Positions 10,797 to 12,603 of a DNA stretch of 13,618 nucleotides are shown piece by piece. The notes beneath the pieces were generated by a model. It did no database searches. It was not told where the DNA came from and saw nothing but the letters and a program-made list of their open reading frames with translations. How positions within the stretch are numbered: position 1 is the first letter of the stretch; the number at the start of each line of letters is the position of its first letter. The position numbers and the translations under genes are program-made. The DNA comes from a virus: UHGV virus genome UHGV-1847238; one strand, written 5' to 3'.

Positions 10797-11606
10797 ATGA
10801 ATAATCTGATGGTCATTGATGGTATTGAAGTTCGTCGTGATGCTTATGGGCGTTACAGCCTGAACGATCTGCATCGCGCAGCAGTAGCATCTGGTGCAAA
10901 TGCCAGAACCAAGGAGCCAGGAAAGTTTCTTTCCAGCCAACAAACTGTTGAGCTTGTTCATGAATTGACCAACACCCAGAATTTGGGTGTTGACCCGGTG
11001 AGTGTGATTCATGGGGGAAATGAACGGGGAACGTATGTCTGCAAGGAACTGGTGTATGCCTATGCAATGTGGATCAGCCCGTCATTCCATCTGAAGGTGA
11101 TCCGTACTTTCGACATGGTAACCAGCGCACCGGAAAAATTATCCGGACAGGCTGCTGACAAGATGCAGGCTGGTGTGATTCTGCTGGACTTTATGCGCCG
11201 GGAATTAAACCTGTCTAACTCTTCAGTGCTTGGTGCCTGTCAGAAACTCCAGGAGGCTGTTGGCTTACCGAATCTGGCACCGCGCTATGCCATTGATGCT
11301 CCTGCTGACGCGCCTGATGGCTCAAGCCGCCCCACGCTGTCACTGAGTGCACTGCTGAAGCAGTATGGTATCCGCCTGACAGCTAATCAGGCATATCACC
11401 AGATGGCGAAGCTGGGGATCGTTGAACAACGTGAACGATACAGCCGCACTGCGATTAACAACATCAAAAAATTCTGGTCGCTGACAGCGAAAGGCTGCAT
11501 GTTCGGCAAGAACATCACCAGTCCCGCAAATCCGCGCGAGACGCAGCCGCATTTCTTCGAATCCCGGTTCCCTGAGCTGTTAAAGCTGCTCGATACCGTT
11601 CATTGA
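10797..11606 (+). CDS. KilA-N domain protein (putative antirepressor-like), 269 aa
   Basis: N-terminal region (MVIDGIEVRRDAYGRYSLNDLHRAA ... YVCKELVYAYAMWISPSFHLKVIRTFD) matches the KilA-N DNA-binding domain pattern. Strong SD AAGAGGAGAAA upstream. Confidence 0.75.
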   Translation: MNNLMVIDGIEVRRDAYGRYSLNDLHRAAVASGANARTKEPGKFLSSQQTVELVHELTNTQNLGVDPVSVIHGGNERGTYVCKELVYAYAMWISPSFHLKVIRTFDMVTSAPEKLSGQAADKMQAGVILLDFMRRELNLSNSSVLGACQKLQEAVGLPNLAPRYAIDAPADAPDGSSRPTLSLSALLKQYGIRLTANQAYHQMAKLGIVEQRERYSRTAINNIKKFWSLTAKGCMFGKNITSPANPRETQPHFFESRFPELLKLLDTVH

Positions 11607-11607
11607 G

Positions 11608-12603
11608 GTGACCGTGAGAGCGCTACTGACCCCTGAAATTGCCCCGCGTATGGGGATCGTATTGTTCAGGCCAGGTTCAGAGCTGATGCCCCTGTTTATG
11701 CAGGGGCGTGTCCTGCTGGAGCCTGAGCCGGAACGTTATTCATCTTTCGCCAGTGGTGCCGTTCCGGCGGCATCACAACCGCTGGCGGATGATCCTGCCG
11801 TTCGGGCCGTGTTCCGCAATGAGGCAGTGATCCGTCGTGCTGGTGGCGTGGAATGTCTTGAAAGCTGGTTACTTCGTGAAAAAGGCTGCCAGTGGCCTCA
11901 TTCCGACTGGCACAGCGAGAACATGACAACAATGCGACACGCGCCGGGCGCAATCCGTCTGTGCTGGCACTGCGATAACCAGCTGCGCGATCAGTTCACG
12001 GAACGACTGGAATCAATGGCAACGGATAACTGTACCCGCTGGGTGTTGTCTGTTGTGCGTCGGGATCTCGGTTTTGATGACAGTCACGTTGTGACAATGC
12101 CGGAACTGTGCTGGTGGCTGATTCGTAATGACCTGGCGGATGCCTTACCGGAAAGTGCAGCCCGTAAGGCACTGAGATTACCGAAGCCTGTTGTGCCGTC
12201 TGTCACCCGGGAAAGTGACCTTGTGCCTTCGGTTCCTGCCACCAGCATCATCCAGGATAAAGCGAAAAAGGTGCTGGCGCTGAAAGTGGATCCGGAGTCG
12301 CCGGAGTCTTTTATGTTACGCCCAAAACGTCGCCGCTGGGTTAATGAAAAGTACACGCGCTGGGTTAAGACACAGCCGTGTGCATGTTGTGGAAAGCCTG
12401 CTGATGATCCCCACCACCTGATAGGCCACGGTCAGGGGGGAATGGGTACAAAAGCGCATGACCTCTTTGTGTTGCCTTTGTGCAGAAAGCATCACGACGA
12501 ACTACATGCGGATACCGTGGCATTTGAAGAGAAGTATGGCTCCCAGTTGGAGCTGATATTTCGTTTTATCGATCGTGCGCTGGCAATAGGCGTGCTGGCC
12601 TGA
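11608..12603 (+). CDS. DUF968-like lambdoid nin-region protein with C-terminal Cys/His-rich putative zinc-binding motif, 331 aa
   Basis: C-terminus CACCGKPADDPHHLIGHGQGGMGTKAHDLFVLPLCRKHHDELH. GTG start at 11608 lies 1 nt after the KilA-N stop; start is ambiguous (ATG at 11650 is an alternative). Confidence 0.65.
   Translation: MTVRALLTPEIAPRMGIVLFRPGSELMPLFMQGRVLLEPEPERYSSFASGAVPAASQPLADDPAVRAVFRNEAVIRRAGGVECLESWLLREKGCQWPHSDWHSENMTTMRHAPGAIRLCWHCDNQLRDQFTERLESMATDNCTRWVLSVVRRDLGFDDSHVVTMPELCWWLIRNDLADALPESAARKALRLPKPVVPSVTRESDLVPSVPATSIIQDKAKKVLALKVDPESPESFMLRPKRRRWVNEKYTRWVKTQPCACCGKPADDPHHLIGHGQGGMGTKAHDLFVLPLCRKHHDELHADTVAFEEKYGSQLELIFRFIDRALAIGVLA

Follow-up and report, generated by a model that had tools for sequence, protein, structure and literature searches.

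What do two neighbouring early genes of a prophage do just ahead of its late antiterminator gene Q, one encoding a KilA-N domain protein and the other a DUF968 protein with a Cys/His-rich C-terminus, and do they do it together? The window considered here is the whole stretch of 13,618 nucleotides analysed from the virus genome UHGV-1847238, and an earlier note on it took the two genes as a coupled pair that could act either in induction control or in nuclease-based exclusion, while calling both proteins functionally undefined. In this last respect it was right, the literature yielding no experimental function for either protein. The explanation that we favour, at a probability of roughly 55%, is that an E. 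coli lambdoid prophage, of the mEp460/cdtI type, transcribes the two together as delayed-early accessory genes of its nin region, a probable nuclease and a putative DNA binder sharing a slot and with no obligate pairing between them. Features of the locus are collected in Table 1.

Table 1. Features of the KilA-N and DUF968 genes and their surroundings, in window coordinates.
Feature	Position	Strand	Basis and remarks
KilA-N gene	10797..11606	+	269 aa, ATG; ORF, Pfam, PHROG 129, RefSeq WP_001061444.1
KilA-N domain (aa 7-109)	10815..11123	+	Pfam PF04383, 79.2 bits vs cut-off 23.8
Hypervariable cassette within the KilA-N domain (aa 29-77)	10881..11027	+	homologue comparison
C-terminal ~150-aa domain of the KilA-N protein, without a Pfam family	11142..11603	+	conserved motifs
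GAGG Shine-Dalgarno of the DUF968 gene	11605..11608	+	read from sequence; 5 nt before GTG at 11614
DUF968 gene (YdfU/PdcB family)	11614..12603	+	329 aa; RefSeq start WP_024211833.1, Pfam, PHROG 96
Candidate second zinc site, DUF968 N-terminal domain (C92, H100, C117, C120)	11887..11973	+	column conservation, predicted structure
HNH / His-Me finger core (aa 254-298) of the DUF968 protein	12373..12507	+	conservation, hhalign, BFVD, predicted structure
RusA Holliday-junction resolvase gene, directly 5' of the KilA-N gene	10388..10777	+	RefSeq annotation
Q-family late antiterminator gene, 17 nt 3' of the DUF968 stop	12621..12962	+	RefSeq, PHROG 79
isrK + C4 antisense RNA + Rha-family protein module (P1 immI-like / Gifsy-like)	6551-7714		
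LexA-family repressor gene of the prophage	4994-5668	minus	

Both open reading frames that were first noted (10797-11606, 269 aa from an ATG, and 11608-12603, 331 aa from a GTG, each on the plus strand) are present and both are real genes. Against orthologues their dN/dS falls within 0.08-0.26 (0.10-0.20 for the KilA-N gene, 0.08-0.26 for the DUF968 gene) at a dS near 1 or above, and so both are under purifying selection; the same dS gives no sign of an embedded constraint inside either gene, and minus-strand frames within them all have 90 aa or fewer. The 1-nt gap and the length of 331 aa probably have to be given up. The KilA-N stop codon TGA occupies 11604-11606, with the first in-frame GTG at 11608 and the next at 11614, and this second GTG is most likely the start of a 329-aa protein behind a 7-nt spacer, because it is the RefSeq start, because the MRALL at the N-terminus of all homologues begins at the matching codon, and because a GAGG Shine-Dalgarno, on our reading of the sequence, overlaps the KilA-N stop codon. 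Across 80 loci the codon at this position is GTG in 41, ATG in 35 and TTG in 3. Spacers within the block measure 19, 7 and 17 nt, and promoter and terminator scans of 10797-12603 stayed at background level with nothing above it between the genes, while an Rfam search of the same interval returned no RNA family. The KilA-N and DUF968 genes are thus operonic and co-transcribed, the 7-nt spacer carrying the Shine-Dalgarno, and to this extent they are coupled. They follow the replication, methylase and RusA genes, which puts the KilA-N gene at the distal end of the rightward early operon.

Family membership of the second protein is clear, and the profile searches that had been proposed placed both KilA-N and DUF968 above their thresholds and HNHc_6 as a weak match to the DUF968 protein. 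Pfam DUF968 (PF06147) covers aa 162-328 with 271.7 bits against 27.8 (E 3.5e-81, profile positions 2-171 of 171), PHROG 96, named 'HNH endonuclease', matches over the full length (positions 1-334 of 334), and YdfU of K-12 and PdcB of P1 are collinear with the protein from end to end in a multiple alignment, with 100% coverage of P1 pdcB by tblastn. The motif C-x-C-C ... PHH ... PLC-x2-HH-x3-H, which had been thought to look like a zinc-binding or HNH-like nuclease site, corresponds to C256/C258/C259, H267/H268, C290, H293/H294 and H298 in the 329-aa numbering, and that suggestion has fared well. Zinc would be held by C256, C259, C290 and H293 (conserved in 41/41, 34/41, 36/41 and, as H or C, 34/41 homologues), and H267/H268, D283, H294 and H298 would be the catalytic or metal-binding residues (H267 in 37/41, H268 in 38/41, D283 in 41/41, H294 and H298 in 37/41). 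An AlphaFold2 model with a pLDDT of 88, replacing a first one from a shallow 21-sequence alignment that was discarded at a pLDDT of 63, predicts strands at 265-268 and 286-289 and a helix at 291-299 with local pLDDT mostly above 90, that is, the beta-beta-alpha core and putative zinc-binding CxxC ... Cxx[HC] pair of a His-Me finger; by conservation a catalytic His ends strand 1 and a metal-binding His sits in the helix, again as in these enzymes.

Solved and predicted structures were compared as well. Hhalign against YbcO (PDB 3g27) gives a probability of 84% (E 7.7e-6) over the C-terminal 75 residues, and in BFVD the model matches stand-alone DUF968 proteins at TM 0.71-0.76 with E-values down to 7.6e-8, and also a RecA-dependent nuclease. 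Searching PDB by sequence, whether single queries or profiles were used, returned nothing significant, and Foldseek against PDB reached a best E-value of 1.7, with HNH proteins (Cap5, Cas5-HNH, IscB, ScoMcrA, T5 SciA) coming up several times among weak matches. On sequence and predicted structure, then, the C-terminus appears to be a canonical HNH / His-Me finger of the zinc-finger kind, with YbcO as a relative, in line with the placing of DUF968 and DUF1364 together in His-Me finger group 7, for which a recombination or repair role has been proposed (Jablonska et al. 2017, PMC5714182). A demonstrated nuclease activity or phenotype was not found in the literature for any YdfU/PdcB family member. 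The window protein has the HH catalytic dyad, unlike the PdcB-like proteins of the P1-like subgroup, from which it has been lost, and so part of the family at least may act without catalysis.

The N-terminal ~230 aa of the DUF968 protein matched nothing in PDB or BFVD. This half contains a second Cys/His site, which the earlier note did not mention, with the pattern C-x7-[HC]-x16-C-x2-[HC] around a predicted beta-hairpin and helix (aa 104-124, pLDDT above 90). Among 41 diverse homologues C92 is kept in 40 and C117 in all 41, the counts at position 100 are 20 for H and 19 for C, and those at position 120 are 26 for H and 15 for C. Its derivation from a degenerate copy of the HNH finger was considered and set aside: hhalign gives a collinear alignment of 76 columns (P 0.012) at a probability of 3.6%, which makes an internal duplication suggestive but unproven, and no catalytic His is conserved in the N-terminal module. 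A lambda Orf/NinB-like N-terminus, proposed for Gram-positive 'DUF968'/HNHc_6 proteins (PMC4118853), was likewise rejected for the window protein at an hhalign probability of 0.1%.

Recognition of the first protein as a KilA-N protein also stands, with an E-value of 2.4e-22 over profile positions 5-105 of 107, a match to PHROG 129 'transcriptional regulator' and the RefSeq name 'KilA-N domain-containing protein'. One segment of its domain is hypervariable: the homologue P0170 is 100% identical to it over aa 1-28, 29% over aa 29-77, 97% over aa 78-115 and 99% over aa 116-269, and at least three alleles of the aa 29-77 cassette circulate. A swapped internal cassette of this sort suggests allele-specific DNA targets. 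The C-terminal domain has the conserved motifs YAIDAP..DGSSRPT and GKNITSP.NPRETQPHFFE; it drew no Pfam match at E<=1, and neither an ANT nor a Rha domain was matched by Pfam anywhere in the protein. In Pseudomonas phage Alize the same C-terminal domain stands behind Bro-N, whereas in phage Medea1 and in a phage of Ruminococcus it stands behind Phage_pRha. Judged by its family, the protein would be a sequence-specific DNA binder, one of the class in which KilA-N, Bro-N and Rha modules are shuffled. P1 KilA, the founding KilA-N domain protein and non-essential, is 40% identical over aa 4-105 but has a different C-terminal part and a different locus, adjoining repL and far from pdcB.

Whether the two proteins belong together is best judged from where their genes occur. 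Among the 5,426 E. coli genomes that are complete, about 2,090 (roughly 40%) carry the RusA-KilA-N-DUF968-Q block, which is found also in Stx2-converting, cdt-converting and laboratory lambdoid phages. Neighbourhoods were counted over 80 species-level loci with DUF968, where the order of the genes that are present is LexA-DBD, RusA, a variable gene X, DUF968 and Q, and where RusA travels with DUF968 in most cases. A Q-like gene follows DUF968 in nearly all of them, or of 78 loci in one count (Phage_antitermQ 43, Antiterm 18, lambda-type 1, and 18 of DUF1133, which is the Q-like PHROG 753), and the position right before the late-gene regulator is kept across several Pfam Q families and in P1, whose pdcB directly precedes the late activator gene lpa. 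Gene X is much less constant. An antirepressor-like gene lies immediately 5' of DUF968 in 39/80 loci, being of Roi type (Rha+ANT; Roi homologues at 43% identity, E 7e-46) in 25, KilA-N in 12 and ORF6N in 2; it mostly overlaps DUF968 by a 4-nt ATGA, KilA-N having instead the 7-nt spacer with its Shine-Dalgarno. Gene X is absent and RusA adjoins DUF968 in 21/80, a 171-aa ORF lies between the KilA-N and DUF968 genes in 2/80 viral contigs, and neither ydfU of K-12 nor pdcB of P1 has a KilA-N or Roi-type partner upstream. DUF968 proteins 94-97% identical to each other sit behind either KilA-N or Roi-type genes and do not co-vary with the partner. Because the upstream gene varies in this way before near-identical DUF968 proteins, we do not take the two for a specific pair, and the coupling that had been proposed is supported in part, the gene 5' of DUF968 being exchangeable.

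The closest known systems have much of this organisation in common. YdfU of the Qin prophage in K-12 (61% identity, its gene followed at once by a Q gene) and PdcB of P1 (26% over the full length, E 2e-32 to 2e-36) both have the two-domain architecture. YbcO / DUF1364 of DLP12, phage 82 and HK022 is a nin-region neighbour of RusA and Q too and belongs to the same group 7, but is a stand-alone finger of 96 aa, to which the window protein adds a ~230-aa N-terminal region with its second Cys/His site; Pfam YbcO (PF07102) is not among the matches of the window protein, making it a remote relative and not a member. In HK022 the order is Roi(Rha+ANT)-YbcO-RusA-NinH-Q, the Roi stop overlaps the ybcO start, and Roi thus holds the same slot as the KilA-N gene, with a His-Me finger gene of group 7 directly after it and RusA and Q close by. 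The two have the slot in common but no sequence similarity. HK022 Roi is Rha+ANT (KilAC) and the KilA-N protein of the window is KilA-N plus an unnamed domain; BLASTP between the two gives E 7.2, no Rha or ANT domain was matched, and hhalign of the C-terminal domain against full-length Roi-type proteins gives 0.2%, from a shallow profile.

In our preferred explanation the DUF968 protein would be a zinc-stabilised, divalent-metal-dependent HNH DNA endonuclease, its N-terminal ~230-aa domain with the second Cys/His metal site serving in substrate recognition, and it would cut or process intermediates of phage DNA replication or recombination during lytic growth. Its gene lies by RusA and is the last before Q, at the place where lambda has NinG/Rap and HK022 and phage 82 have YbcO, and the KilA-N gene would be a non-homologous replacement of Roi in the HK022 slot, expressed presumably only after induction. 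It is the position and the neighbours of the DUF968 gene that suggest a role in recombination. In P1 pdcB is non-essential (EOP 0.68 and 0.26 by CRISPRi, with viable pdcB::kan lysogens), and so the role may be a conditional one or one unrelated to replication.

A functional link of the antirepressor-like gene with DUF968 nonetheless deserves weight, because such a gene is found directly 5' so often. Possibly, though with odds well short of even, the HNH nuclease is targeted or gated by an interchangeable, sequence-specific DNA binder, be it KilA-N, Roi-type Rha+ANT or ORF6N, and the unit could be directed at host or competitor-phage DNA for exclusion or host takeover, or could cut the phage's own DNA at one specific site when early expression gives way to late. 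Their tight junctions, by ATGA overlap or Shine-Dalgarno spacer, would suit such a unit, as would the analogous Roi-YbcO overlap in HK022 and the pair of Morganella IME1369_02, still adjacent at 58% and 38% identity, and the hypervariable cassette resembles a switching of target specificity. A precedent is BstA, a KilA-N-like prophage protein that mediates abortive infection (Owen et al. 2021, PMC8585504). Against this, DUF968 often follows RusA directly and stands alone in Qin and P1, near-identical DUF968 proteins lie behind unrelated partners, another ORF may separate the two genes, and the KilA-N C-terminal domain occurs also in phages showing no adjacent DUF968 gene. PADLOC gave no defence-system match for the DUF968 protein and, for the KilA-N protein, matched PDC-S22 weakly and at the level of a domain (37 residues, E 1.6e-5); BstA was absent from these matches, though PADLOC may lack a model of it. 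Nuclease-based exclusion, as first suggested, thus found no positive evidence. BstA is encoded beside the prophage repressor, in contrast to the KilA-N gene of the window in its nin region. More doubtful again is a two-part programmable nuclease made up of the YdfU/PdcB protein and such an interchangeable binder, with the DNA target chosen by the hypervariable KilA-N cassette and the signal passed to YdfU through its N-terminal zinc domain; if true, such a module could serve in taking over host DNA or in competition between phages at the early-to-late switch.

That the KilA-N protein is an antirepressor controlling induction of this or co-resident prophages, the other suggestion made for it, seems unlikely. 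KilA-N, Bro-N and Rha modules are indeed common in proteins annotated as antirepressors, and the C-terminal domain is common to phage proteins annotated in this manner, but a gene so deep in a delayed-early operon should be expressed only once the repressor has been inactivated, the prophage already has its dedicated isrK/C4 RNA/Rha-family module, Pfam found no ANT domain, and Roi, the positional analogue, is tied to lytic growth and not to repressor antagonism. Very little probability attaches to the 329-aa protein being an orthologue of NinG/Rap, a branched-DNA endonuclease in the lambda sense, which the earlier note had named as a finding that would count against its own reading. In its favour are membership of one superfamily (His-Me finger), a shared location between the replication genes and Q, and the association of the family with recombination genes; lambda NinG/Rap itself is a structure-specific endonuclease and non-essential. 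However, no Pfam NinG (PF05766) match was obtained at E<=0.1, the family profile aligns with lambda NinG at an hhalign probability of 4% over 13 residues with no sequence relationship detectable beyond a CxxC, NinG falls in group 24 of Jablonska et al. and not in group 7, and the window prophage, unlike lambda, has RusA, which already supplies junction resolution in this module. A part in cos or pac cleavage, as an accessory factor of the terminase, is just as improbable for the HNH protein. Terminases can receive help from HNH proteins, as from HK97 gp74, and in P1 pdcB precedes pacA/pacB by two genes; yet in the lambdoid prophage Q, cargo genes and a lysis cassette separate DUF968 from the terminase genes, and in P1 pacA and pacB are essential whereas pdcB is not.

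Published work already covers the families, their neighbourhood and their classification as His-Me fingers where it applies, and both genes are common accessory genes that are already annotated, so that their identification is routine annotation of known families and not a discovery. What gives the YdfU/PdcB family its interest is an apparently intact HNH active site joined to a ~230-aa domain unmatched in the structure libraries searched, nearly always last before a late-gene regulator. Knowing its substrate would supply a missing piece to the maps of P1 and the lambdoid nin region, and might explain why Roi-like and KilA-N-like genes so frequently precede such nucleases.

Two further features of the locus were considered and put aside. 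KilA-N::DUF968 fusions in P0045 and P0064 (498 aa) could have served as Rosetta-stone evidence, but they are in-frame 310-nt deletions running between a 9/10 repeat, TGTTC(G/C)GCAA, at 11500 and 11810, which take away the end of the KilA-N protein together with 68 aa from the start of the DUF968 protein, and look like prophage decay rather than designed fusions. A 20-nt inverted repeat (10826-10845 / 12487-12506, 19/20 complementary) brackets the pair; in 11 orthologous pairs the complementarity is 8-14 of 20, save for one near-identical pair (18/20), with no compensatory changes, and the repeat, in which the codons for VRRD stand opposite the reverse complement of those for HHDE, was treated as a coincidence.

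The upstream of the two frames encodes a KilA-N protein of 269 aa read from an ATG, and the downstream one a DUF968 protein of the YdfU/PdcB family, 331 aa when read from its first GTG, both as the earlier note gave them. The KilA-N, DUF968 and HNH profile searches proposed there place the first two domains above their Pfam cut-offs, with a marginal HNHc_6 match spanning the Cys/His region of the DUF968 protein. PHROGs assigns the KilA-N gene to family 129 ('transcriptional regulator') and the DUF968 gene, over its full length, to family 96 ('HNH endonuclease'), and NCBIfam holds no model for either protein. 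The 1-nt gap formerly proposed between the genes gives way to a likely start at the GTG at 11614, where RefSeq also begins the gene: homologues all start MRALL at the matching codon (GTG in 41, ATG in 35 and TTG in 3 of 80 loci), and a GAGG overlapping the KilA-N stop codon lies at the correct Shine-Dalgarno spacing, hence a protein of 329 aa, by which residues are numbered here, and an intergenic spacer of 7 nt. Values of dN/dS of 0.08-0.26, with dS around 1 or above, indicate purifying selection on both genes.

Features of the window and of the two proteins (residue counts for the DUF968 protein are across 41 homologues)
Feature	Position	Strand	Detail
KilA-N gene	10797-11606	+	269 aa, ATG
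KilA-N domain	aa 7-109		Pfam 79.2 bits, cut-off 23.8
Swapped cassette, residues 29-77	10881-11027
DUF968 frame from first GTG	11608-12603	+	331 aa
DUF968 gene, likely start	11614-12603	+	329 aa
DUF968 domain	aa 162-328		331-aa ORF searched; Pfam 271.7 bits, cut-off 27.8
Shine-Dalgarno GAGG	11605-11608
Direct repeat	11500-11509 and 11810-11819		9/10
Inverted repeat, rejected	10826-10845 / 12487-12506		19/20 complementary
Block shared with EC4	10300-13000		2.7 kb
LexA DNA-binding-domain gene	10065-10391	+	108 aa
DNA cytosine methyltransferase gene	12986-13609 and beyond	-
Rha-family ORF	6551-7714		387 aa
isrK Hfq-binding RNA	6911-6987	+	Rfam 59 bits
C4 antisense RNA	7012-7099	+	Rfam 82 bits
C256	residue 256		41/41; inferred zinc ligand
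C259	residue 259		34/41; inferred zinc ligand
C290	residue 290		36/41; inferred zinc ligand
H or C	residue 293		34/41; inferred zinc ligand
H267 / H268	residues 267, 268		37/41 and 38/41; inferred catalytic
D283	residue 283		41/41; inferred catalytic or metal-binding
H294, H298	residues 294, 298		37/41 each; inferred catalytic or metal-binding

Flanking ORFs were classified in 80 loci, about one per species, with a DUF968 relative at 46-99% identity, the upstream gene being scanned in all 80 and the downstream gene in 78. A Q-type antiterminator follows DUF968 in essentially every locus, be it Phage_antitermQ (43 loci), Antiterm (18), DUF1133 (18; PHROG 753, 'Q-like') or lambda-type Q (1), while the gene upstream varies between Rha+ANT (25), RusA (21), KilA-N (12), a LexA DNA-binding domain (4), methyltransferases (4) and ORF6N (2). 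In most loci the upstream stop and the DUF968 start overlap as ATGA, the KilA-N spacer being +7. The Rha+ANT proteins are homologous to a 241-aa HK022 protein matching the DNA-binding protein Roi (43% identity, E 7e-46); HK022 carries Roi, YbcO, RusA, NinH and Q in that order, the stop codon of Roi overlapping the beginning of ybcO. DUF968 proteins 94-97% identical stand behind KilA-N in one genome and behind a Roi-type gene in another (locus pairs L017/L014, L020/L040 and L024/L021), K-12 ydfU has neither a KilA-N nor a Roi-type partner, and P1 pdcB stands alone immediately upstream of the late activator gene lpa. A 171-aa ORF (3826-4341) separates otherwise near-identical KilA-N and DUF968 genes in two of the 80, both IMG/VR contigs (L106, L121). 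The same DUF968 with different partners, the split pair and the lone genes are evidence against a specific partnership, and nothing in the 80 loci suggests that any one upstream partner has co-evolved with the DUF968 nuclease. Of the coupled pair formerly proposed the operonic packing stands, but the upstream gene is exchangeable. Overall, the conserved feature is DUF968 before Q, and the gene in front is a replaceable cassette, often antirepressor-like.

The repeat TGTTC(G/C)GCAA occurs twice in direct orientation, and public assemblies hold 498-aa in-frame KilA-N::DUF968 fusions (P0045, P0064; 14 member sequences) joined at KGCMFG and NEAVIRR, a junction that fits a 310-nt deletion between these repeats. 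A 20-nt inverted repeat bracketing the pair was rejected, being unconserved in orthologues and a codon coincidence of VRRD codons with the reverse complement of HHDE codons.

Conservation of the DUF968 protein covers all 329 residues, beyond the Pfam region: K-12 YdfU aligns end to end at 61% identity, P1 PdcB at 26% with 100% coverage (E 2e-32 to 2e-36), and about 100 clusters among 1.84 billion representatives match at E<=1e-30, many full length at 27-50% identity. An AlphaFold2 model from a 41-sequence alignment of such homologues is confident (pLDDT 88) and has in its C-terminal 80 residues a beta-beta-alpha unit (strands 265-268 and 286-289, helix 291-299), where, as read from the sequence, the Cys/His motif is a textbook zinc-finger HNH pattern. 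Profile comparison relates the family to YbcO (PDB 3g27; probability 84%, E 7.7e-6, 75 residues), and BFVD matches to the finger are stand-alone DUF968 phage proteins of about 110 aa (TM 0.71-0.76, E down to 7.6e-8), with a RecA-dependent nuclease also among them. Homology to NinG/Rap, named in the earlier note as speaking against its reading, was not detected, lambda NinG reaching a probability of only 4% in profile comparison and Pfam NinG giving no match. The N-terminal ~230 residues match no Pfam family and nothing significant in PDB or BFVD. They carry a Cys/His set not noted before (C92 40/41; position 100 H 20, C 19; C117 41/41; position 120 H 26, C 15) around a predicted hairpin plus helix, likely a second metal site given the H/C interchange at two positions that is typical of metal ligands. 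An N-versus-C profile alignment is collinear though not significant (P 0.012) and hints at an ancient internal duplication. A P1-PdcB-like branch (pdcB at 3501-4544 of the P1 locus L003; P0310, P0312, P0372) keeps the zinc cysteines and D283, has lost the PHH histidines and may be catalytically inactive. By eye, as an unquantified impression from the A1/A2 alignments (P0041 and K-12 YdfU, L002 3256-4305, minus strand), DUF968 proteins look mosaic, with N (~aa 1-117), middle (~118-235) and C segments reassorting between alleles, and one breakpoint coincides with a conserved LCWHCDNQLRDQ motif.

In the KilA-N protein a domain of about 150 aa follows KilA-N, with strongly conserved motifs YAIDAP..DGSSRPT and GKNITSP.NPRETQPHFFE; Pfam gives no hit for it, even with the threshold relaxed to E<=1. 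In Pseudomonas phage Alize this domain is preceded by Bro-N, and Phage_pRha precedes it in phage Medea1 and a Ruminococcus phage, the gene of the latter sitting right after cro. This puts the protein in a class of phage DNA-binding proteins that shuffles KilA-N, Bro-N and Rha modules. Within KilA-N itself residues 29-77 are a swapped cassette: a common allele is 100% identical over aa 1-28, 29% over 29-77, 97% over 78-115 and 99% over 116-269, alleles are only 21-29% identical in the cassette with both flanks at 97-100%, and at least three circulate in E. coli and Salmonella. The cassette may be the DNA-recognition segment.

Established here are the domain content, the intact HNH catalytic and zinc pattern, the second Cys/His site, the RusA/Q operonic packing and the upstream exchangeability. 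The YdfU-type protein would be a metal-dependent DNA endonuclease that in lytic growth acts on intermediates of phage replication or recombination, filling the position of NinG/Rap in lambda or YbcO in HK022, phage 82 and DLP12, a role matching the His-Me finger group 7 hypothesis of Jablonska et al. 2017 (PMC5714182), and the KilA-N protein would be a Roi-like sequence-specific DNA binder. Since P1 pdcB, P1 kilA and lambda ninG are each dispensable under laboratory conditions, such functions are accessory.

The main rival, a two-component unit of DNA binder plus nuclease, keeps some weight, as an antirepressor-like gene lies immediately upstream of DUF968 in 39 of 80 loci and is usually translationally coupled; against it stands the exchange of partners. 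That the KilA-N protein acts as an antirepressor in induction, as the earlier note suggested, is unlikely, because its gene lies at the distal end of the early operon and the prophage is already equipped with an isrK/C4-RNA plus Rha-family module. There both RNAs, matched at Rfam gathering level, lie within an ORF that RefSeq names 'Rha family phage regulatory protein', whose annotated start is probably too far upstream, and the whole looks like a P1 immI-like or Gifsy-1 isrK-type sRNA-controlled antirepressor module.

Both genes and families are already known: thousands of entries 99-100% identical are named 'KilA-N domain-containing protein' or 'DUF968 domain-containing protein', and the placing of DUF968 among the His-Me fingers, like its gene neighbourhood of RusA, Q and antirepressors, is published (PMC5714182). 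The additions are descriptive: a start codon moved to 11614; for the YdfU/PdcB protein, an architecture traced over its full length, with a likely second metal site and an N-terminal part unmatched in structure libraries; a place ahead of the late regulator that scarcely varies, whether this is P1 lpa or a Q gene of one of several Pfam families; one slot in which KilA-N-type genes stand in for Roi-type genes; and a hypervariable segment within KilA-N.

The block around the pair matches prophage DNA of E. coli EC4 (L001) at 100% identity, in which genes for a LexA-DNA-binding-domain protein, RusA, KilA-N, DUF968 and Q follow on a single strand with overlaps or short spacers. Among 5,426 complete E. 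coli genomes, 2,091 carry at least 80% of it, as do 44 deposited phages, mEp460, cdtI, Ayreon and Stx2a/Stx2c-converting phages among them, so the RusA-KilA-N-DUF968-Q module is very common and has been annotated before. The LexA-domain protein is nothing but the DNA-binding domain and lacks the peptidase; its stop codon overlaps the beginning of RusA, and in many Enterobacterales species its gene accompanies RusA and DUF968. ARAGORN found no tRNA in the window, and the left part (1-5000 vs L001) is shifted by about 657 bp relative to EC4, the early-left region thus being unlike that of the EC4 prophage. The gene directly past Q runs on the other strand and encodes a DNA cytosine methyltransferase; in EC4 (L001 13687-17653) an ATP-dependent nuclease gene and then IS903B come after it. 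This cargo sits between Q and the lysis genes and may be a defence or restriction-modification-like module.
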